This document shows, one piece after another, positions 927-10,684 of a DNA stretch of 10,684 nt. Source of the stretch: Methanoregula sp. (lineage in GTDB: Archaea; Halobacteriota; Methanomicrobia; Methanomicrobiales; Methanospirillaceae); the NCBI GenBank assembly GCA_039698055.1, contig JBDKTL010000020.1:1-10684 (forward strand), given 5' to 3'. Every line of letters begins with the position of its first letter. Position 1 is the first letter of the stretch. A program made the position numbers and the translations under genes. The notes under the pieces were generated by a model. It had not been told where the DNA came from. It saw nothing but the letters and a program-made list of their open reading frames with translations, and searched no databases.

Positions 927-1715
927 TTACTTGAGCACGCAGATGGACTGGGGTGCATGAACCATGAGCGCCAGGCTCTCGTAGATCTGGAACTCAAGGA
1001 GATCCCCGACAGGCCCGTTGTACCCGAGCACCATGTCCTGGCCAATCGCGACCGACACGTACTGTTTTCCTGACGCCAGCAGGACCCCGCCTTTCTTTAA
1101 GTTGGGGGCTTTTACGACGCCATCGGTGACAATCGAGCGGATGTGATCGAGCTCGGTGCCTGCCCCCTGCGGATACCGGCGCAGGAGAAGGTTAAAGAGC
1201 GACGGGGCTAACGCCATGCTGTAGGGACCGTGGAACCCGGCCTCGTCGAGTTTTGTTACCGCATCGATGATCTGGTCTGCGGCAGTACCGACTTTCTCCC
1301 ACTTGGACAGGCTGAACGAACCTGCACCTGCGACGTTCATCAGTCCCGGGATCCCGGGAAGACCGGAAAGGAGGACCTGGTCTTCTTTTGCAGCGCAGTC
1401 CATTGCAGCGCAGGCAACCGGCGCGGTATCGAGGAACAGGTGGTCCCGTTCAAATGCCGCAAGGTCCCGTTTGGCAAGGCTGAAATCGGTCCGGATCATC
1501 GTTACCGGAACAGACGCACTGCCCACGATCCCGTCATCGATTACATAGTCCCCAAGGGAAATGGACTTGAGCCCCAGCCCGTACGGGCCTTCAATCGGGA
1601 GTATCCTGCGGCCGACAAGCTGGCTCTTTGCGGATTCCACCATGACCTTGTCGAGCAGGGCCCAGGTTTCCGCGGTAATGGGCGCATCCCCGCGCCCGAG
1701 ATATTTGTTTTCCAT
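927..1715 (-). CDS. Family 1 encapsulin shell protein (linocin M18/maritimacin family, HK97 fold)
   Basis: 262 aa. The N-terminus YLGRGDAPITAETWALLD...LVGRRILPIEGPYG, the internal GFHGPYSMAL and IGQDMVLGY, and the C-terminal FQIYESL match linocin-type encapsulins. AGGAG RBS upstream and cargo gene immediately upstream. Confidence 0.93.
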   Translation of the reverse strand: MENKYLGRGDAPITAETWALLDKVMVESAKSQLVGRRILPIEGPYGLGLKSISLGDYVIDDGIVGSASVPVTMIRTDFSLAKRDLAAFERDHLFLDTAPVACAAMDCAAKEDQVLLSGLPGIPGLMNVAGAGSFSLSKWEKVGTAADQIIDAVTKLDEAGFHGPYSMALAPSLFNLLLRRYPQGAGTELDHIRSIVTDGVVKAPNLKKGGVLLASGKQYVSVAIGQDMVLGYNGPVGDLLEFQIYESLALMVHAPQSICVLK

Positions 1716-1733
1716 GGTTTACATCTCCTGAAT

Positions 1734-2093
1734 TTATTTCAATGATCCAATTGTCGTTTCCTGCTGTACCGGTCCGGAGCCCTGTGCTGCCGGGGCAAAC
1801 TTTGCCGCCATCGTATCGACTTCAAGGGTTCCTTTCTTGAGGAATTCATCCTCGTTACCCGTGAGAATTGCCATAAGCCGCATCAGTTCTCCCACGTGGA
1901 CACGCTCTTCATCGGCGATATCCACAAGGACAGCCTTTGCAAGAGGATTATCGGTTGCATCGGCGTGGGACATATAAAGGTGAATTGCTTCGAGTTCTCC
2001 GGCAATATCAAGACGGACTGCCCGCACAAGTTCCTCGTGCGTCATCTTGCGGTCCGGTGTTACTCCACTGAAAGGATTGACAAATTCTGGCAT
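1734..2093 (-). CDS. Encapsulin cargo ferritin-like protein (Flp/EncFtn type) with C-terminal targeting peptide
   Basis: 119 aa. Ferroxidase-type motifs ELEAIHLY and DEERVH (ExxH), then a flexible linker APAAQGSGP and terminal TTIGSLK matching the IGSLK cargo-loading consensus. AGGAG RBS. Confidence 0.9.
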   Translation of the reverse strand: MPEFVNPFSGVTPDRKMTHEELVRAVRLDIAGELEAIHLYMSHADATDNPLAKAVLVDIADEERVHVGELMRLMAILTGNEDEFLKKGTLEVDTMAAKFAPAAQGSGPVQQETTIGSLK

Positions 2094-2127
2094 AATATTC
2101 TCCTGTTAGCCAATAGTATACCTTAAA

Positions 2128-2135
2128 AATATAAA
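2128..2135 (-). promoter_or_regulatory. TATA box candidate for the flp-encapsulin operon
   Basis: TTTATATT on the minus strand, about 35-42 nt upstream of ATG 2093, leaving room for the RBS. Confidence 0.55.
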
Positions 2136-2220
2136 TATTCCTGACATGGTGACAGCACAAAATTGCGGTGGTTTCCCAAAGGGAAATCAGAATATGCCGG
2201 GTTTTTTAATAATCGCCGGG

Positions 2221-2261
2221 TTTTGCCGGCAAAAAAATTCCTCTCACCGGTGCAGCACCGG
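2221..2261 (-). terminator. Terminator candidate after uvrC
   Basis: Inverted repeat CCGGTGC-A-GCACCGG (2247-2261) followed on the minus strand by T7 (2231-2237), which overlaps the palindrome TTTTGCCGGCAAAA (2221-2234). Confidence 0.45.
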
Positions 2262-2270
2262 GTGCACCTG

Positions 2271-3851
2271 TTATTTTCCCGGACGGGACGGCCGTTTATT
2301 CTCCCCCAGTACCTTCTTTTTCCGCAGCAGCCGGTTATAGGACACCGCAAACCGGTGCGCTTCATCACGAATCTCCTCAACGTACCGGAGCGCACTGCTC
2401 TTCCGGTCAAGCCGCAGGGGGAGTACCGCGCCGGGCACGTAGATCTCTTCTTCGCGTTTTGCAATTGCAATGACCGGGATATCTATGCCCAGAGTGCCCA
2501 ACACCCCCGTCGCCGATGACAACTGGCCTTTGCCGCCATCGATGATCACAAGATCAGGCAGCGCTGCGTGCTCGTCAACAAGCCGCTGGTACCGGCGCTT
2601 CACGACTTCTGCGATGGAAGCAAAATCGTCGATCCCTTCAACCGTCTTTATCCGGAACCGGCGGTAGTTGCTCTTGTCCGGTTTCCCGTCACGGAACTGC
2701 ACCATGGACCCGACCATGGCCGTGCCGGACAGGTGGGAGATATCAAAGCATTCGATGACTGAAGGGGCGGGCACAAGCCCGAGTGCCGCACCCAGATCGG
2801 CACCTTTGAGGACATCGCGGAAGAATGCAATCTCAAGATTTTTCAGCGCAAGGTCGAGCAGCTGCTTCTTTTCGCCGCGCTGGGGGAAGATCACATCGAC
2901 ATGCCGGCCTTTTTTCTGCGAGAGGAACCCGGCGAGCGCCGGATCTGTTGCATGGTCGAGGATCAATTCCGCCGGAGGTTCGCGCTCCGAATAGTACTGC
3001 ACCAGGAATTCATCAAAAAAATCCTCAACGGCTTCGAAGGTATATTCCTGTTTGTTCGAGAGCGACCCATGTTCGACATTGAACACGACAAGGTATACCT
3101 GCCCGGCACTCGCCCGGCAGGCGATTACGTCCTGGTCGTATTCCCGCCGTCGCTCGACCGTCTGCCGGTCGGCAAGGTGCCCGATGGCAGCAATCTCGTT
3201 TCTCAGTTCAAGCGCGCGTTCATAGTCCTCTGCTGCGGATCGCTCGGCCATCTCCTGACGGAGCCGTTCCAGAAGTTCGCCACCCTTTCCCTTCAGCAGC
3301 AGGGCGGCCTTTTTCACGTTCCCGTCGTACTCCTGCGGGCTGAGGGTGCCGGTGCAGGGTGCACTGCAGGACTGCATGTGACGGCGGAGGCAGGGGCGTT
3401 TCGGGATTTTTTTGCAGGTCCGCAGGTGAAATGCTTTTTTTACCACCTTGAGGACATGATCGCGTTCGGCAGCGGACACAAACGGCCCAAAGAACGTCCC
3501 GTCCCCCTTGGTCTGCCGGGCAATCACCAGCCGGGGAAATTCTTCGCAGGTCAGTTCGATCCATGCATACCGTTTTGCGTCTTTTAGGTCGATGTTGTAT
3601 TTCGGCTGGTGTTTTTTTATCAGTGTATTTTCCAGCAGGAACGCTTCGGTCTCGGTATTGGTGACCATGACGTCAACGGATGCGATATGTTCGACAAGGC
3701 TCCGGGTCTTTGGGTCATGGTCTTTTTTGGAAAAATAACTCGATACCCGCTTTTTGAGGTTCTTCGCTTTCCCCACGTAAATGATGGTGCCGCCGGTATC
3801 CGCATACAGGTAGCAGCCGGGATTTTCGGGAAGCGTGGCGGGATCGATCAT
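2271..3851 (-). CDS. uvrC: Excinuclease ABC subunit C (short form without C-terminal HhH domain)
   Basis: GIY-YIG domain (PGCYLY...IIYVGKAKNLKKRVSSYF), Cys-rich region, UVR domain, and RNase H-like nuclease motifs IECFDISH, DLVIIDGGKGQL and IRDEAHRFA. Confidence 0.97.
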   Translation of the reverse strand: MIDPATLPENPGCYLYADTGGTIIYVGKAKNLKKRVSSYFSKKDHDPKTRSLVEHIASVDVMVTNTETEAFLLENTLIKKHQPKYNIDLKDAKRYAWIELTCEEFPRLVIARQTKGDGTFFGPFVSAAERDHVLKVVKKAFHLRTCKKIPKRPCLRRHMQSCSAPCTGTLSPQEYDGNVKKAALLLKGKGGELLERLRQEMAERSAAEDYERALELRNEIAAIGHLADRQTVERRREYDQDVIACRASAGQVYLVVFNVEHGSLSNKQEYTFEAVEDFFDEFLVQYYSEREPPAELILDHATDPALAGFLSQKKGRHVDVIFPQRGEKKQLLDLALKNLEIAFFRDVLKGADLGAALGLVPAPSVIECFDISHLSGTAMVGSMVQFRDGKPDKSNYRRFRIKTVEGIDDFASIAEVVKRRYQRLVDEHAALPDLVIIDGGKGQLSSATGVLGTLGIDIPVIAIAKREEEIYVPGAVLPLRLDRKSSALRYVEEIRDEAHRFAVSYNRLLRKKKVLGENKRPSRPGK

Positions 3852-3962: not shown

Positions 3963-6773
3963 CTATTCTCTTCCCGCCAGCATCGGTTTCAGGTACTGCC
4001 CCGTGAAACTTGCGGCGACATTTGCCACGGCTTCAGGAGTCCCGGTTGCCACGATCTCCCCGCCGGCATCCCCGCCTTCCGGCCCGATATCAAGAAGATA
4101 ATCCGCCGATTTGATCACGTCAAGGTTGTGCTCAATCACGACCACCGTATTGCCCTTTTCCACCAGATCGTCAAGCACGGTGATCAGTTTCTTGGTATCG
4201 TCAAAGTGAAGACCGGTCGTCGGCTCGTCGAGCAGGTAGAGGGTCCGGCCCGTTGCCCTTTTTGCCAGCTCGCGGGTCAGCTTGATCCGCTGTGCCTCGC
4301 CGCCCGAGAGTGTTGTCGAACTCTGGCCGAGCTTGATGTAATCGAGGCCCACCCTTGACAAGGTCTCCAGTTTGCTGCTGATGGAGGGAATATTCTCGAA
4401 GAGTTTCAGCGCCTCCTCCACGCTCATGTCCAACACATCGGCGATCGACTTGCCCTTGTACGTTACTTCGAGCGTCTCGCGGTTGTAGCGTTTCCCCTTG
4501 CACTCCTCGCATTCGATGTAGACATCGGGCAGGAAGTTCATCTCGATCCGGATCAGGCCGTCGCCTTCGCAGGCCTCGCACCGCCCGCCCCGGATATTGA
4601 ACGAGAACCGGCCCGGCTTGAAGCCCCGCATCTTCGCTTCCTTGGTCTCGGCAAAGATCGTGCGGATCTCATCGAAGACCTTGGTGTAGGTGGCCGGGTT
4701 GGACCGCGGGGTCTTCCCAATCGGCGACTGGTCGATCACGATCACCTTGTCGATATCGGAGTCGAAGACGATCTTGTCGTGCTTTCCTGCCTGGTCACGC
4801 GAGTGATGGAGGATCTGCATCATGCCCTTGTACAGCGTCTCCTCAACCAGCGTGGACTTGCCGGAGCCGGAGACACCGGTGACCACGGTCAAAAGGCCGA
4901 TGGGAAATTTCGCATTGATATTTTTCAGATTATTTTCCCGGCACCCTTTGACCGTGATGTAATGCTTGGGTTTCCGGCGGGTTTCGGGGATCTCGATCTT
5001 CTTTGCACCGGAAAGATACTGGCCCGTGAGCGATTTTTTGTTCTTCTCGATCTGCTTTGGGTTGCCTTCCGCAACAACGTAGCCGCCATGCACGCCGGCG
5101 CCCGGCCCCATGTCGATCACGTGCTCTGCGGACCGGATCATGTCCTCGTCATGCTCCACCACAAGCACCGTGTTGCCGAGATCGCGGAGCGTCCGGAGGG
5201 TCTCGATCAGCTTCCGGTTGTCGCGCTGGTGCAGGCCGATGGAAGGTTCGTCCAGCACATAGAGCACGCCCATCAGGGTCGAGCCGATCTGGGTGGCGAG
5301 CCGGATTCTCTGCGCTTCCCCGCCCGAGAGCGACCCCGCGTTCCGGGAGAGCGTGAGGTACCCGAGACCGACCTTCTCCAGAAAGTCCAGCCGGGACCGG
5401 ATTTCCTTCAGGATCTGTTTTGAGATCTCCCGTTCCTTGTCGGTCAGCTTCAGGCCGTCAAAGAACTTCAGGCTCGCGGAGACCGAGAGGTCCGTCACAT
5501 CGATGATGGACTTGCCGTTGATCCGGACCGCGAGGATCTTGTCCTTGAGCCTTTTTCCCTTGCAGGACGGGCAGTCGGAGACCCGCATGTAGCCTTCGAG
5601 CTCGCGCTTCCGCCAGTCAGACTTGGTCTGGGCATAGAGCCGGGCGGTCTGCGGGAGGAGTCCCTCCCACTCGCCGTTGTGCGACCACTGGGCATCGCCG
5701 TTCTTTGCGCTCATCGAGAAGTGCATCTTCTCGGTCGAGCCGAACATCAGGCCATTGTACTGCTCCCGGGTCAGGTCTTTGATGGGCGTTAAGACGGAGA
5801 AGCCGAAATGTTTTGCAACCGTGGCAAGGTACTGGCCCCTGAAGCCGTCCATCGGGTTGCGGTACGGGGCAACGGCACCGTCCGCGATGCACCGGTCCTT
5901 GTCCGGGATGATGAGGTCGGGGTCGAACTCCATCTTGACCCCGAGACCGTGGCACTCCTCGCAGGCGCCGAACGGGCTGTTGAACGAGAACATTCTTGGC
6001 TGGAGTTCCTCGAATGCGATCCCGCAGACCGGGCAGGCAAGGAGCGAGGAGTAGGTGGACTCGGTCTCCTGTTCATCGAGCACGATGATGAGCCCTTCGG
6101 ATTTCTTCAGGGCATTCTCGATCGCTTCCGTGAGCCGTGAGCGGTCGCTTGTCTCCAGCCGGTCGATCACGATCTCGATGTCGTGTTTCTTGTACCGGTC
6201 GAGCGTGATCTCCTCATCGGTCCGTATTATTTTTCCGTTCACCCGGACCCGGGCATAGCCTTCCTTGTCCAGATCTTTTAAGAGCTGCTGGTAGGTTCCC
6301 TTCTTCTGCCGGACTATTGGCGAGAGGATGGTGACCTGGCCGGGATGCTCGGCAAGGATCTGGTCCGCGATCCGGTCCGGGCTCTGGGCTGCGATGGGGA
6401 TATTGTGCTCGGGGCAGAACGGCGTCCCGATGCGGGCATAGAGGAGACGGAAGTAATCGTAGATCTCGGTGGTGGTTCCGACCGTTGACCGGGGATTCTT
6501 GGAGGTGGTCTTCTGCTCGATGGCAATGGCCGGCGAGAGTCCTTCGATGTGGTCCACGTCGGGCTTCTGCATCATGCCCAGGAACTGCCGGGCATAGGAG
6601 GAGAGCGATTCCATGTACCGGCGCTGGCCTTCGGCATAGAGCGTATCGAACGCTAATGTCGATTTGCCGGAGCCGGAGACTCCTGTAATGACTACTAACT
6701 TATCCCGGGGGATCGTGACGCTGATATTTTTGAGGTTGTGCTGGCGGGCACCTTTGATGATGATATCTTTCAT
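3963..6773 (-). CDS. uvrA: Excinuclease ABC subunit A
   Basis: 936 aa with two GVSGSGKS Walker A motifs, two [11 protein letters not shown] signatures, LDEPS/LDEPT Walker B, zinc-binding CxxC motifs and the UvrA motifs HNLKN and [10 protein letters not shown]. Confidence 0.99.
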
Positions 6774-6837
6774 GGCTGTGTGCTCATTGAATCATCGTTG
6801 TGATTTAAAGGAGTTCACTTTGGGGCATGAAAGTGAA
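6537..6837 (-). repeat. Copy 1 of a diverged direct repeat (uvrA promoter plus codons 1-79)
   Basis: Aligns with 8494-8793. Hand count gives 44 differences in 237 coding nt (about 81% identity) and 71/79 identical residues. Upstream blocks TTAAAGGAGTTCA and GGGCATGAAAGTGAA are shared. Confidence 0.95.
6804..6837 (-). promoter_or_regulatory. uvrA promoter: TATA-like TTTAAA plus upstream inverted repeat TTCACTTT-N8-AAAGTGAA
   Basis: TTTAAA at 6804-6809 lies 31-36 nt from the ATG. Perfect 8-bp arms at 6814-6821 and 6830-6837. The blocks are conserved in the second copy. Confidence 0.6.
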
Positions 6838-6878
6838 GAAGAAATTTCCCGACAAATCCCAAAAAAATCCCCCTCCCG

Positions 6879-6914
6879 TACACCAAAATTAACATAAATG
6901 TTAAGGTTGGTGTA
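6879..6914. promoter_or_regulatory. Palindromic operator upstream of abiEi (likely autoregulatory site)
   Basis: TACACCAAAATTAACAT-AA-ATGTTAAGGTTGGTGTA: 17-bp arms matching at 15/17, ending about 30 nt before the ATG. GGAGG RBS at 6931-6935. Confidence 0.75.
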
Positions 6915-6943
6915 TCTAAGGGGGAAAAGGGGAGGAGACACCA

Positions 6944-7702
6944 ATGACAATTGAGATCCTGAAGTCCATGGCAAAGGATAACCAGATCTTTTCGTTTGCT
7001 CAGCTGTACCAGAAGACGCACATCAAAAAAGAAATGCTCTGGGTCATCCTCTCCCGTATGGAAGAGAAAGGGTTCATTGAGCGGATTGAGAAAGGCAAGT
7101 ACCTGATCATCCCGCTCGGGAGCGAGAAAGGAAAATACACGCTCCACGAATTCGTCATTGCTTCGTACCTGGTAGAACCCTACGCGATCTCCTACTGGAG
7201 CGCCCTCCATCACTACGGACTCACCGAACAGATCCCCACCACGGTCTTTGTCCAGACACCTGCACGCAAGAAGAAGAGCCAGCTCGACATTTTCGGGGTG
7301 AACTACCAGATCGTCCGGGTGAAGGAGGAAAAGTTTTTTGGGATCCGCAAGGAATGGATCGAGGAGACTTCGATCAACATCACCGATAAAGAAAAGACGG
7401 TAATCGATTGTCTCGATAAGCCCCACTACGCCGGGGGCATCACTGAGGTAGCAAAAGCTCTCATGAACAGTTCACTGGATCACGACAAGCTCAGCGAATA
7501 TGCCATCGGGATCGACAATTTCGCTGTGATCCGGAGGCTCGGATACCTGTGCGAAAAGGCAGGCGTGTCTATTAATCTCCCGCCGCCCCGCTCGAACAAA
7601 TACCTGTTGCTGGACCCCACGATGCCGGCTAAAGGGGAGAACGATCCAAAATGGCGGCTCGTGATTAACCAGGATGCCATTCTGCCGGAGTCACCTGAAT
7701 GA
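6944..7702 (+). CDS. abiEi: Type IV toxin-antitoxin antitoxin, AbiEi family (N-terminal winged HTH)
   Basis: wHTH-like LSRMEEKGFIERIEKGKY, plus ISYWSALHHYGLTEQIP and TDKEKTVIDCL motifs. ATGA overlap with the next gene at 7699-7702. Confidence 0.88.
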   Translation: MTIEILKSMAKDNQIFSFAQLYQKTHIKKEMLWVILSRMEEKGFIERIEKGKYLIIPLGSEKGKYTLHEFVIASYLVEPYAISYWSALHHYGLTEQIPTTVFVQTPARKKKSQLDIFGVNYQIVRVKEEKFFGIRKEWIEETSINITDKEKTVIDCLDKPHYAGGITEVAKALMNSSLDHDKLSEYAIGIDNFAVIRRLGYLCEKAGVSINLPPPRSNKYLLLDPTMPAKGENDPKWRLVINQDAILPESPE

Positions 7703-8478
7703 TCCCGGCTCTTGAGATCAAGGAACGTGCCCGTGAGTCCGGTGTGCCACCCTCGACTATCGAGCGGGACTATGCACAGAACTGGCTCCTGTCTGCTCTT
7801 CGTTCGGTAAACATGGTATTCAAGGGAGGGACCTGCATCCGGAAAGTGTTTATCGAAAACTACCGGTTCTCCGATGACCTCGATTTTACTCTTCTTGAAC
7901 CGATCGGTGCCGATGCAATTTTTGCAGCGGTGAGCGATGCGATCGTTCGGGTCCGCGAAGAGAGCGGCATTCCTTTCGAAGACGATCCCGGATTCCGGGA
8001 AACCAAAACCGGTTTCAAGGCAACGGCCCGGTTCCGGATCCTGAACCGGGGGTCCGCATCCCCGGTTAAGATCGATCTGGATTTGACAAGCCCCGGCCAG
8101 GAGGATGTCCTTCTGCCGGTAACCAAACGCCCGGTTTTCCATCCGTATTCCGACGGGCTCCCGGCATCCGTGACTTCGTATTCTCTTGAAGAGATTATGG
8201 CGGAGAAGATTCGCTCGCTCTTCCAAAGAACCCGTTCACGCGATCTCTACGATATCGGGCAACTGGCAGATCGGGTGGACCGGCCGGTTGTGAAATCAAT
8301 TCTTTCACAGAAATGTGATACAAAAGGTGTTGTTGTTGACACAGCGATACTAGCCGGAAAACGGGAGCAGTTCAAAGCATTGTGGCAGGGTTCTTTAGGC
8401 CACCAGATGAAAGTGGTCCCGGATTTTGACGAGGCGTTTGGGAAAATGCTGGAAGAGATAGAGGGATATTCAGCGTAG
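7699..8478 (+). CDS. abiEii: Type IV toxin, AbiEii/AbiGii (DUF1814) nucleotidyltransferase
   Basis: IERDY, FKGGT...YRFSDDLDF (Pol-beta GG..DxD), and EKIRSL...RSRDLYD motifs. Translationally coupled to abiEi. Confidence 0.92.
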
Positions 8479-8730
8479 AACACTGGCCAGCTTGAGCCCT
8501 TCGATGGAATCCACATCCGGCTTGTGCATCAGCCCGAGGAACTGGCGGGCATACGTGGAAAGTGATTCAACATACCGTCGCTGTCCTTCTGCATACAGGG
8601 TGTCAAACGCGAGCGTCGATTTGCCGGAGCCGGAGACCCCGGTAATCACGACAAGCTTGTCGCGGGGGATCTCCACATTGATATTTTTCAGGTTGTGCTG
8701 GCGGGCACCTTTGATGATGATGTTTTTCAT
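8470..8730 (-). pseudogene. uvrA: Truncated uvrA 5' fragment (79 UvrA codons plus 7 codons, stop inside the 3' end of abiEii)
   Basis: 90% aa identity to residues 1-79 of the full UvrA, including Walker A. Weak nucleotide similarity continues to about 8481, next to the abiEii stop. Confidence 0.9.
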
Positions 8731-8793
8731 GCTGGTGTGCTCAGAGAATCAGCTCCGGTAGTTAAAGGAGTTCAGTCCGGGCATGAAAGTGAA
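8494..8793 (-). repeat. Copy 2 of the uvrA promoter and 5'-end direct repeat
   Basis: See copy 1. TTAAAGGAGTTCA is at 8762-8774 (same 32-nt offset from the ATG as copy 1) and GGGCATGAAAGTGAA is at 8779-8793. Confidence 0.95.
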
Positions 8794-8839
8794 CAATATG
8801 CAACTCTCAGAGAACGGTCCTTATCAAACTCATGATTAA

Positions 8840-9424
8840 CTAATAGTTATTTAAAAAAAATGTCCTGATCATGACGATCTTATAATTAATATGCATTTCT
8901 TTTTGATTATTTTTTATCCGTTTTCTTTGTTCTTCAGGACAATTTGGGTCATATTTTATTAGGTATTCAAAAAGATCAAGAATTAAATGACACTCCTCGT
9001 ACGATTTAATCAGTTCTGGAAATGTCACATTTACTCCAGTTTCATGAGCGACTAATTGACGATTTTCTTGTAGATTGTTGTATATTTGAAATATTCTCGC
9101 TATTTTCCTATTTTCTTTCATTTTATCGAATTTTTCTCGATGGCATTTACCAAAAAAATTAATGAAATCTCCAAGATCCGAGGTTTTATATCTTTTTAGA
9201 AATTTATCAACAGATGATTGAAAATATTGATTTTCAACATTTTGACAATTTTTGCAATTTATATGTTTTTTGGCAATTTTATTGAATTCCTTCTCAAAAC
9301 AATTGATTATCAAAACTAGAAGATAAGAAACAAGATAATTTTCAATTTTTGTTCCGAAGGTGTTAGTATTCTTTAGATGATTGCCACAGTCTTTTATTGC
9401 ATTATCAATTTCAATATTTTTCAT
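8840..9424 (-). CDS. HEPN-domain protein (RiboL-PSP/MAE_28990-like), putative RNase effector
   Basis: Rx4H motif (ENRQLVAH) and an N-terminal hydrophobic helix ending in FE (YLLVLIINCFE). Starts 3 nt after the DUF262 stop. Confidence 0.72.
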   Translation of the reverse strand: MKNIEIDNAIKDCGNHLKNTNTFGTKIENYLVSYLLVLIINCFEKEFNKIAKKHINCKNCQNVENQYFQSSVDKFLKRYKTSDLGDFINFFGKCHREKFDKMKENRKIARIFQIYNNLQENRQLVAHETGVNVTFPELIKSYEECHLILDLFEYLIKYDPNCPEEQRKRIKNNQKEMHINYKIVMIRTFFLNNY

Positions 9425-9427
9425 GGT

Positions 9428-10504
9428 TCATGTGAATAATTGTTTTTTCGCTTCGGAAAATCTACTCTGAACAATTTTTACATCCGTTGTTGCATTTCTG
9501 CAATATCCATAAAATATAGTATCTTGTTTTAGATTCTGATATTTGTCTTTAATATCATGATTTATCGAACTAAGATTATGAGCAAAATTGTACATTACTG
9601 AGTCAAAAAATCCTGGATTAAGTCCAGAAACAATATGAAATGGTTTTGGACCTAATATAGTATCGACTTTTTCGCAAGTATCTCTAAAAATTTTTTCCGA
9701 ATTTTCGATAAAATCACGAGATGCGTTCTGGTGTTTTGCCATGAACGTATTCATAAATTCTTTAAGCGGTTTCTCATAATTATCATACTCATAATAAAAC
9801 GCGAAAAAACGAAGAATAAATTCGATATCTCTCTGTCTTCCATCTACAACAGGTTTCCCAACGATGCGCCTCCAATGAGGATCATTATTTAATTTTTTCA
9901 TCAATTCATTAAAGGAACCATGATAAATACTATTTCTTATCTCTTGATTTGTGAGAGAGGTTCCACCTGTATTTAATCTCTCAAAAATGTGATAGATACT
10001 CGTCGCATCTTTTGGATCATGCTGTTCAACGATGAATGCTCTTAATATACGGTTAATGAATTTCTCTTTATCCGCATCTGTCAAATCTGCAAAAGATTTG
10101 CCAAAATATTCACTTTTTGGATTTAATTCAGTAAGACGAAAAACTTCTCTTTTCCCCTCTTTTTCATCCCCAAAATATCCGTTAATAAAGTAGTGAATTG
10201 ATTTCAATCTTTGTTGTCCATCAATGACTAAGGAATTCTGACTTTCTGGTTCAGTATAAAGAAAAATTGCTGGTACGGGGAGTCCAACTAAAAATGATTC
10301 AATTAATCTTGTTGCCTGGATTTTTTTCCAGACAAACCCTCTTTGAAAATCTGGAACAATTATTTTTTTGTTTGAGAGTTTATTATTAAGAACTTCCAGA
10401 GTAAAATCTGCCGGATATGTGAATATTCGATAATTGGGCAAAGTACTTGTATAATCTTCCATTTCTGAATTTACGTCCTCAACATCAATTCCATCATCTG
10501 TCAT
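9428..10504 (-). CDS. DUF262 (ParB/Srx-like, GmrS-type) domain protein
   Basis: VPDFQRGFVW, LIESFLVGLPVPAIFL, VIDGQQRL and IFERLNTGG motifs. ATG 10504 has an AAGGAG RBS and is preferred over 10609. Confidence 0.9.
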   Translation of the reverse strand: MTDDGIDVEDVNSEMEDYTSTLPNYRIFTYPADFTLEVLNNKLSNKKIIVPDFQRGFVWKKIQATRLIESFLVGLPVPAIFLYTEPESQNSLVIDGQQRLKSIHYFINGYFGDEKEGKREVFRLTELNPKSEYFGKSFADLTDADKEKFINRILRAFIVEQHDPKDATSIYHIFERLNTGGTSLTNQEIRNSIYHGSFNELMKKLNNDPHWRRIVGKPVVDGRQRDIEFILRFFAFYYEYDNYEKPLKEFMNTFMAKHQNASRDFIENSEKIFRDTCEKVDTILGPKPFHIVSGLNPGFFDSVMYNFAHNLSSINHDIKDKYQNLKQDTIFYGYCRNATTDVKIVQSRFSEAKKQLFT

Positions 10505-10535
10505 ATTAGACTCCTTTTTTATCCATAGGTTTTGG

Positions 10536-10545
10536 TTATAATAAA
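10536..10545 (-). promoter_or_regulatory. TATA box candidate for the DUF262-HEPN operon
   Basis: TTTATTATAA, 32-41 nt upstream of ATG 10504. The region is AT-rich, so specificity is low. Confidence 0.4.
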
Positions 10546-10684
10546 TCTTAGTTAATCTGGCTCTGTAGAATTCCTCAATGAAAATAAGGAATGACAAAGA
10601 AGAGATCAATTTTGAGATATTGTAGAGGATGATTTTGATTTTAATTTCCTTGATCTGAAGTCGGTATTTGCGGGCTTTGAGTGC

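Follow-up and report, generated by a model that had tools for sequence, protein, structure and literature searches.

We describe a locus in the archaeon Methanoregula at which a defence cassette has probably moved in beside the repair gene uvrA and displaced the 5' end of that gene. The stretch of DNA analysed (the window) is the entire 10,684-bp contig C20 of a metagenome-assembled genome (MAG), which consists of 49 contigs and is 93% complete. Within it, a two-gene AbiE toxin-antitoxin (TA) module stands between a full-length uvrA gene and a second, truncated copy of the uvrA promoter and 5' end, which we call the stub. Related arrangements occur across the genus, and we conclude that the locus reflects real, recurrent cassette movement by 5'-end displacement at uvrA, free of any integrase. 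The repeated uvrA sequence is probably the scar of a homologous recombination event anchored in uvrA, in which an imported block of about 4.2 kb displaced the 5' end of the recipient gene. Our own designations are used for related genomes (G), loci (L), contigs (C) and sequencing runs (X).

Two copies of the uvrA 5' end flank an AbiE module

The resident uvrA gene (3963-6773, minus strand) encodes 936 amino acids with Pfam UvrA domains. It is preceded by promoter copy A (6774-6843, minus strand), which contains a TATA-like box and the motif TTCACTTTCA at about -66. The stub (8481-8796, minus strand) is composed of promoter copy B (8731-8796) and codons 1-83. Segments 6524-6823 and 8481-8780 are direct copies with 79% identity and a start-to-start distance of 1957 bp; in BLAST alignments the repeat extends from -67 to +250 around the ATGs at 6773 and 8730 and is 317 bp long. 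Pfam and PADLOC detect only abiEi and abiEii between the two copies, and no protein of the window, including those encoded between the copies, matches a recombinase family in Pfam. These features agree with an original prediction made from the window alone, which had placed an AbiE pair, with no recombinase gene, between direct copies of the uvrA promoter and about 80 codons, with start codons 1957 bp apart.

Over the 83 shared codons, the copies are identical at 201 of 249 nucleotides (80.7%) and at 72 of 83 amino acids (86.7%). The predicted nucleotide identity of about 81% was accurate, and the predicted amino acid identity of about 90% was too high. The differing codons are mostly synonymous, as had been proposed (28 synonymous, 11 not), and third positions hold 33 of the 48 base differences. 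The stub is an open frame of 86 codons (8470-8730, minus strand) that includes the Walker A motif.

The motif TTCACTTTCA is found at window 6835 and 8791 on the minus strand. It opens 36 of the 42 uvrA 5' copies that were printed for comparison, and the others carry one- or two-base variants. A second TCACT(T/C) is often present approximately 21 nt downstream, and TTCACTTTCA precedes the uvrA TATA-like box in all three types of Methanoregula promoter. A regulator probably binds the motif. When solo copies were sought as possible cassette boundaries, the motif turned up only inside uvrA 5' copies.

The resident uvrA is foreign and the stub is native

The origin of each uvrA copy was assessed by comparison with other Methanoregula genomes and with the genes that surround the locus. 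The uvrC and encapsulin operon (927-3851) is 89% identical to G009 and G049 over 2925 nt, and 66-69% identical to G123, G019, G119 and G120. The far flank of the island, on contig C8 of the MAG, is 80-89% identical to G009/G049 and 70-74% to G123/G019. On similarity, the backbone of this genome is of the G009/G049 type. The resident uvrA has a different affinity. Of the 12 complete 200-nt bins up to nucleotide ~2520, 11 match G123 at 94-98% identity and one at 89.5%; the first bin of the gene gives 90.2% over 123 aligned nucleotides, as the G123 contig ends at the ATG. Promoter copy A is 97.6% identical to the end of the G123 contig over -69 to +55, and the G123 cargo upstream of it differs. 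Sliding identity to G009/G049 is only 72-87% up to window ~4250.

The affinity of uvrA switches from G123/G019-like to G009/G049-like at window ~4245-4320 (minus strand). Base-by-base alignment resolves this right-hand breakpoint as a narrow mosaic zone, within which the parental types differ every few bases. Past the breakpoint, the last ~290 nt of uvrA are 94% identical to G009 versus 86% to G123. The stub, in turn, is 92.4% identical to the uvrA of G009, 93.8% to a stub in G049, and 80.8% to the resident copy in its own genome. Because the stub and the backbone are G009-like and the resident copy is G123-like, the stub is best read as native and the resident gene as imported. By these comparisons, G123 represents a distant Methanoregula clade, nucleotides 1 to ~2500 of the resident uvrA (window ~4270-6773) are foreign, and the working uvrA is an imported xenolog over about 90% of its length, with the stub as the displaced native 5' end. 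The original prediction had taken the copies for alleles of different lineages and not a fresh duplication, and had the cassette supply a promoter and 5' end that keep uvrA intact; both ideas hold, since each copy is closer to another genome than to its partner, the working copy being G123-like and the stub native. The MAG contains one uvrA and the stub, and no second uvrA was found.

Two other lines were followed and set aside. The resident 5' end had at one point been taken as native, as it and the remainder of uvrA ranked their relatives alike by similarity; comparison of uvrC and of the far flank overturned this assignment. A core-gene probe (L168) proved to be a variable gene and was uninformative.

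The AbiE module and its junctions

The module at 6865-8478 has the composition of an AbiE type IV TA system, in which neighbouring genes that overlap encode an antitoxin, AbiEi, with a winged-helix N-terminus and a C-terminal domain, and a nucleotidyltransferase toxin, AbiEii; it is predicted to be such a system. It consists of a control region (6865-6943, plus strand), abiEi (6944-7702, plus strand; Pfam AbiEi_1/AbiEi_4, PADLOC AbiEi E=1.9e-84) and abiEii (7699-8478, plus strand; Pfam AbiEii, PADLOC AbiEii E=5.1e-68), and the two genes overlap by 4 nt at 7699-7702. A module with the same ends (6865-8471) is present in at least 20 other loci that lack a uvrA fragment. The region 6863-6926 upstream of abiEi, comprising TTTTGGTGTACGGGAGGGGGA and its flanks, recurs in relatives, both upstream of other cassettes and at many further sites, and is probably the AbiEi operator/promoter.

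Two junctions delimit the module. On the promoter A side, alignment with G059, G019 and G089 defines a linker at 6844-6864 (junction J2), and homology of AbiE to other genomes stops at 6863-6868. On the other side, junction J1 (8479-8484) connects the abiEii 3' end to the truncated stub. The abiEii stop codon is at 8476-8478, and similarity of the stub ends 3-6 nt away from it, at 8481-8484; the original prediction had seen this similarity fade close to the stop. J1 is a non-homologous join.

Genome G089 shares the stub-AbiE-uvrA layout, with 1975 bp aligned at 88.7% identity and a spacing of 1958 bp. AbiE is 88.5-91.6% identical between the two genomes, uvrA 82.6% and the stubs 84.0%. G089 carries the same J1 with shared derived bases, and its stub allele is different. 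J1 predates the present event because it also exists in G089, and it was probably inherited with the donor block and not made here. In G059 (locus L082, on G059:C2), the same AbiE module is located 7-9 kb from uvrA. There it is flanked by ~590-bp direct repeats (2478-3018 and 4866-5444), which are 78% identical overall and ~95% in their central part, and which contain the array element described below.

Stubs recur upstream of uvrA across Methanoregula

We searched 108 Methanoregula genomes, 99 of which gave a uvrA match; related genomes in this set are not independent. In 15 genomes, a complete uvrA is preceded, on its own contig and strand, by one to three stubs. G080 and G055 have a stub with a downstream copy that runs off the contig end, which brings the genomes with a stub upstream of uvrA to at least 17, and G001, G023 and G114 have stubs on other contigs. 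Several stubs may occur together, with three in G105, two in G088, two in G001 and two to three copies on one contig in G055. The 3' ends of the stubs fall at +69, +114, +157/158, +174, +194/197, +206, +216-223, +229/230, +247/250, +304/308, +383 and +620, and are constant within a cargo family. Stubs ending at +308 accompany a YhcG-type nuclease or Fic, those at +230 a GNAT gene, those at +206/218 adjoin restriction-modification (R-M) systems, and those at +247/250 accompany AbiE. Near-empty sites were seen in some relatives. Orphan uvrA 5' fragments with variable cargo, and near-empty sites, are what the original prediction expected to find in related genomes.

For 17 stubs, a resident partner gene was available in the set. 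Six are closest to their own gene and 11 to the gene of another genome. A 1-nt frameshift and a junction at +308 are common to the stubs of G091 and G097, whose best matches are nonetheless the resident genes of their own genomes (98.4% and 93.5% identity, respectively). This combination of a shared frameshift and junction with similarity to the local gene indicates that the stubs have undergone gene conversion by the resident uvrA. The same 1-nt insertion is found in stubs of three species, namely G091 (L057 11797-12105), G097 (L056 11895-12206) and G096 (L066 12732-12891). The G091 and G097 stubs also share a linker with three TGTCGGG repeats, and their cargo differs (YhcG nuclease vs Fic).

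Further variation was seen in individual genomes. The stub of G019 (L034 15984-16222) consists of uvrA nucleotides 1-40 and 427-620 with the middle deleted, which implies that stubs can start longer and then decay. The uvrA of G083 (L070) matches G097 at 91% identity over its initial 240 nt and at 81% over the 900 nt that follow, and the promoter type differs from that of its uvrA relatives; in this genome, replacement may have been confined to the 5' end.

Among 340 proteins (143+109+88) scanned from 33 loci of relatives and of the genome itself, no integrase family was found, and the single insertion sequence transposase in the scanned arrays is in G097. A genome-wide search for a recombinase acting in trans, as suggested by the original prediction, was positive for tyrosine recombinases, with five genes that are all on other contigs, and negative for a resolvase.

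The AbiE module belongs to a larger cassette array

The variable interval in which these cassettes lie is flanked by uvrA on one side and by an RDD-family gene on the other. On the RDD side a conserved protein is usually present, and some genomes add HEAT-repeat genes or an M54 peptidase. Cargo of the interval includes AbiE, SoFic, PDC-S02 nucleases, ApeA, PARIS AriA/B, Shedu, R-M systems and MNT/HepT. With variable, defence-rich content between the same core genes, the interval is a core defence hotspot, and the AbiE pair of the window is a single unit of a larger cassette array, situated at its proximal end.

A GC-rich element of ~130 nt recurs in these arrays. It starts with TGTCGG and has an invariant core, GGACCCGG. 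We found 80 copies in 19 of 40 loci of relatives (L033-L072), every one in the same orientation as uvrA. None lies in the window. Elsewhere in the same genome there are six, all at C8:42.5-50.2 kb (42493-50164), beside the RDD-side flank. In the single-contig genomes G091, G096 and G093, all copies found lie within ~22 kb upstream of uvrA. The element was detected in 6 of 10 sampled Methanoregula genomes, in one other genus of the family and in two genomes of a second family, and was absent from 93 of 93 genomes searched in four other families. Homologous cassettes (PEMT, DJ-1, MNT/HepT, AbiE, GNAT) are bounded by elements in an order that differs between genomes, as seen in the block permutations between C8 of G000 and G008, and between G019 and G059. 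One hybrid element switches at the invariant core.

We considered what kind of site the element might be. Neither the window nor four arrays had an Rfam family that reached the gathering score. An attC-like hairpin was not supported, with a consensus fold of only 8 pairs and -5.7 kcal/mol; z-scores for the DNA fold of eight single copies range from +0.79 to -2.03. A Xer/dif-like site was likewise not supported: the element has 11-bp inverted arms ~14 nt apart (no formal scan was made), and the archaeal dif spacer is 6 nt according to extracts of PMC2958812. No integron integrase was found in the arrays followed from uvrA to the RDD-side genes in G091, G096, G059 and C8 of the present genome. 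A protein beside the RDD gene (L160 2820-3950, on C8, and its orthologues) is 343-435 amino acids long and has no match in Pfam or NCBIfam. It contains repeated '(R/K)xFxF(D/E)..G' motifs, and it is present in 10 of 10 compared genomes with 55-66% identity. Having no family match and a repeat-rich sequence, it is not recombinase-like and was dropped as a candidate recombinase.

Cassettes may be shuffled by homologous recombination between repeats or by a recombinase. It is possible, though on the unlikely side, that the RDD-uvrA interval is a new type of integron-like platform, in which elements with the GGACCCGG core are recombined in trans and cassettes enter beside the uvrA promoter; stubs would then be aberrant by-products, later spread by homologous recombination.

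Metagenome contigs bridge both junctions

The arrangement was checked against assembled contigs, not raw reads, of the sequencing runs, over window 5500-10684. Contigs of runs X1 and X2 bridge both junctions at uniform depth. Unitig depth is even over uvrA, AbiE, the stub and the low-GC block beyond it, at 172-217 in X1 and 303-366 in X2. In X3, a run from another study, the abiEii/stub junction is identical over 199 nt. AbiE is ~99.4% identical in that run, and the uvrA pieces, which are not tied to one organism, differ by ~8%. X3 and a further run, X4, provide no coverage past 8787, which we do not interpret.

The original prediction had called for a search for the junction of a 1957-bp circle. 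Two weak in-register joints were found and no firm junction. A joint in X1 (6556>8519) skips 1962 nt at a depth of 3.9, compared with about 200 for the locus, and a joint in X3 (8744>6803) goes back 1942 nt at a depth of 14.8. Each is represented by one contig with a short side of 34-35 nt and 90% likeness. We regard these joints as hints only of a circle or of an empty site.

A model for 5'-end displacement at uvrA

In the model that we favour, the recipient would have been a Methanoregula with a G009/G049-like backbone, and the donor a member of a distant, G123-like Methanoregula lineage. The incoming block (window ~4270 to ~8510) would have brought the uvrA promoter and ~2500 nt of the gene, with AbiE immediately upstream. 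The right crossover would have occurred near the uvrA 3' end, in the mosaic zone, and the left join within the first 250 nt of the recipient uvrA. The recipient promoter and ~83 codons would then stay behind as the stub, followed by AbiE and the complete imported uvrA. Since the block brings its own promoter and 5' end, repair capacity would be kept, and an integrase would be unnecessary. The DNA upstream of uvrA would differ between donor and recipient, such that only the uvrA side could pair.

The first junction of the J1 type may have arisen by a one-sided, homology-facilitated illegitimate join inside the uvrA 5' region. In the present genome, the left join would most likely be a crossover or gene conversion between the stub of the donor block and the recipient uvrA 5' end, because the stub/abiEii junction also exists in G089. 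A stub of this kind could serve as a portable second homology arm, allowing a stub-cargo-uvrA block to enter any genome of the genus. Such blocks could move by ordinary double crossover or gene conversion, which fits the presence of a shared junction on different alleles. The sequence comparisons show the repeat itself, the foreign origin of the resident gene and the native one of the stub, the right breakpoint, the recurrence across Methanoregula and the gene conversion between stubs and resident genes. We infer the order of events, how the DNA entered, a dependence on the host recombination machinery, and that AbiE came with the same block; AbiE may also have been there already. The left crossover would lie in the stub or at its end.

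Several observations weigh against this model. No crossover is visible in the 317-bp repeat, except possibly in its last ~30 nt, because promoter A is G123-like and the stub G009-like right to their 5' edges. The donor arrangement has not been observed: G123, the closest relative by uvrA, carries different cargo ahead of its copy of this promoter. G001 and G023 show the opposite situation, with foreign stubs and a resident uvrA that agrees in affinity with uvrC (in G001, 90% identity to G023 over 4.6 kb), so stubs are not always native remnants. Four families of stubs join the ~130-nt element precisely at its 5' end, which plain illegitimate joining does not predict. Finally, the genome is a MAG, in which a chimera of two co-occurring Methanoregula would mimic the similarity pattern, and the breakpoint near window 4270 is outside the span checked with metagenome contigs.

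Other explanations were weighed against the same evidence. In the original prediction, a minimal circle carrying abiEi-abiEii, the uvrA promoter and codons 1 to about 83 integrated by a single crossover; such a circle would measure 1957 bp, and the crossover would fall in the 317-bp segment. The stub, cargo and full gene are in direct orientation, which is the layout of a single crossover, the 1957/1958-bp period is repeated in G089, and the weak joints in X1 and X3 are in register with it. Each of those joints can also be explained by a related strain, and the foreign uvrA tract of ~2500 nt, which extends to the mosaic zone, is ten times as long as the homology segment. A circle cannot explain this genome because an 83-codon segment replaces at most 83 codons, and we consider it very unlikely. 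The underlying idea of that prediction, with the conserved UvrA N-terminus as the anchor and no integrase at work, is retained in our model. The uvrA 5' end might also have been duplicated in tandem within the lineage, with subsequent decay and a later insertion of AbiE. This would account for those six of the 17 partnered stubs that most resemble their own resident gene. For G091 and G097, that resemblance is due to gene conversion, given a frameshift shared across species. The copies in the window are 80.7% identical with mostly synonymous differences, a pattern in which a dead fragment would not diverge, and each has a closer relative in another genome; such a duplication is barely conceivable.

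A site-specific recombinase encoded elsewhere, either integron-like or Xer-exploiting, might instead act on a fixed point upstream of the uvrA promoter and on the elements, with stubs as secondary-site or aberrant events. The cargo/promoter junction at about -66 to -90 in 42 of 42 printed copies is suggestive of this, as are the uniform orientation of the 80 elements, the permuted element-bounded cassettes, the switch of the hybrid element at the invariant core, the four stub families joined to the element 5' end, and the five tyrosine recombinase genes on other contigs. Against it, a search inside the examined arrays and at both of their ends found no recombinase, the element has no conserved hairpin, the window has no element copy, and a 2.5-kb xenologous tract with an intragenic breakpoint needs homologous recombination anyway. 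We regard this explanation as quite unlikely. The locus might also be an assembly artefact, a chimera of G009-like and G123-like Methanoregula from the same sample; the MAG is in 49 contigs, this contig is short with repeats at both ends, and minor uvrA variants are present in the same runs. Such a chimera would require two switches, one of them in a zone (4245-4320) where the parental types differ every few bases. The even unitig depth in X1 and X2, the single uvrA of the MAG, the same type of layout in independent genomes, including single-contig ones, and the presence of J1 in a run from another study all make an artefact highly improbable.

Relationship to known systems

Some integrative elements, among them SXT at prfC and the dusA-specific islands, rebuild the 5' end of the gene into which they insert. 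As at the present locus, the incoming promoter and 5' end drive the target gene, and the native 5' fragment is found at the far side. Those elements differ in that they encode a tyrosine integrase and recombine at a fixed att core; the uvrA locus has no integrase, fragments end anywhere from +69 to +620, and the replaced tract is ~2.5 kb.

A closer likeness is to homology-facilitated illegitimate recombination, as described in extracts of Kirchberger et al. 2017 (PMC5361080) for Rhs C-terminal displacement and for arrays of type VI secretion system (T6SS) effector-immunity genes in Vibrio cholerae. In both cases, a conserved gene segment anchors the incoming DNA, the displaced end of the recipient is retained by the insert, arrays of orphan remnants build up, and there is no integrase. 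In those systems the other end joins without homology; J1 is a join of this kind that was probably inherited with the donor block. The Methanoregula locus has the corresponding marks, with a breakpoint inside the anchor gene uvrA, a retained native remnant and remnant arrays. Compared with what those extracts describe, the part displaced here is the promoter and 5' end of a housekeeping repair gene, where in those loci it is a toxin gene's variable 3' tip; remnant and new gene enclose the selected cargo, and the host is an archaeon. The remnants here have also apparently been reused as homology arms and gene-converted by the resident gene. End displacement as known from Rhs and T6SS genes is thus extended to an archaeal housekeeping gene and to its 5' end, and the traffic of defence genes can incidentally replace nearly all of a repair gene.

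The insert also resembles R-M units that insert with long target duplications, with repeats of 46-423 bp that are mostly near-identical (Furuta, Abe and Kobayashi 2010, PMC2853133). In the parts of that paper available, no archaeal case passed the screen, and a cycle of insertion, amplification and release through the repeats is proposed. Our locus is likewise a small selfish unit with no mobility genes between direct repeats of >30 bp, and the sequence is single-copy in the insert-free genomes G009 and G020. It differs in that the copies are only 79-81% identical and of different phylogenetic origin, and not a duplicated target. Similarities with integrons and clusters of attC sites lacking integron-integrases (CALINs), as outlined in the available text of Ghaly et al. 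2022 (PMC9668308), are found in relatives and on C8, where co-oriented repeats bound order-variable cassettes that include TA modules. The arrays described here have no IntI, carry genes on both strands, and have a repeat that is conserved in sequence and not in structure, with no attC hairpin fold. They point to an undescribed repeat-bounded cassette array in methanogens. Literature searches on uvrA defence hotspots, Methanoregula islands and Methanomicrobia integrons, judged mostly from the result listings, returned no paper describing this locus.

How integrase-free defence hotspots between core genes are built is an open question in extracts of the work on the Pseudomonas aeruginosa hotspots cDHS1/2, which propose homologous recombination in the flanks and leave the building mechanism open (PMC10250203). 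Those hotspots share with the uvrA interval a hypervariable, defence-rich content between the same core genes and no evident mobile-element machinery. Unlike them, as far as those extracts go, the interval has a flanking gene that bears the scars of past events. The record is readable, and comprises the native stub, a 2.5-kb xenologous tract, a mapped breakpoint, one junction on different alleles and gene-converted stubs. Defence genes can thus spread without an integrase by recombination in a conserved neighbouring gene, and the idea of a conserved flank as the vehicle is directly testable at this locus.

Other features of the window

GC content is ~57% in the repair genes, ~53% in AbiE and ~30% from 8800 onwards. 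Downstream of uvrA is uvrC (2271-3851, minus strand; Pfam), and directly downstream of uvrC are genes for an encapsulin shell (927-1715, minus strand; Pfam) and an EncFtn/rubrerythrin-like cargo protein (1734-2093, minus strand; Pfam). On the upstream side of the stub promoter, a low-GC pair of genes at 8840-10557 adjoins it. The pair consists of a HEPN RiboL-PSP gene (8840-9424, minus strand; Pfam) and a DUF262/GmrSD_N gene (from 9428, minus strand; Pfam, with PADLOC matches to NsnA, E=1.4e-66, and PD-T4-2_A, E=9.3e-55), and is probably a separate foreign defence cassette.

Both ends of the window are multi-copy repeats of 127 nt (1-127 and 10558-10684), because of which contiguity between C8 and the window cannot be shown. 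The left repeat matches six further contig ends on five other contigs, and the right repeat is identical to the ends of four other contigs of the MAG, with a depth about 8-fold higher in the run contigs. The repeats look like the termini of a multi-copy insertion sequence, and the one at the right end interrupts or abuts the DUF262 gene.

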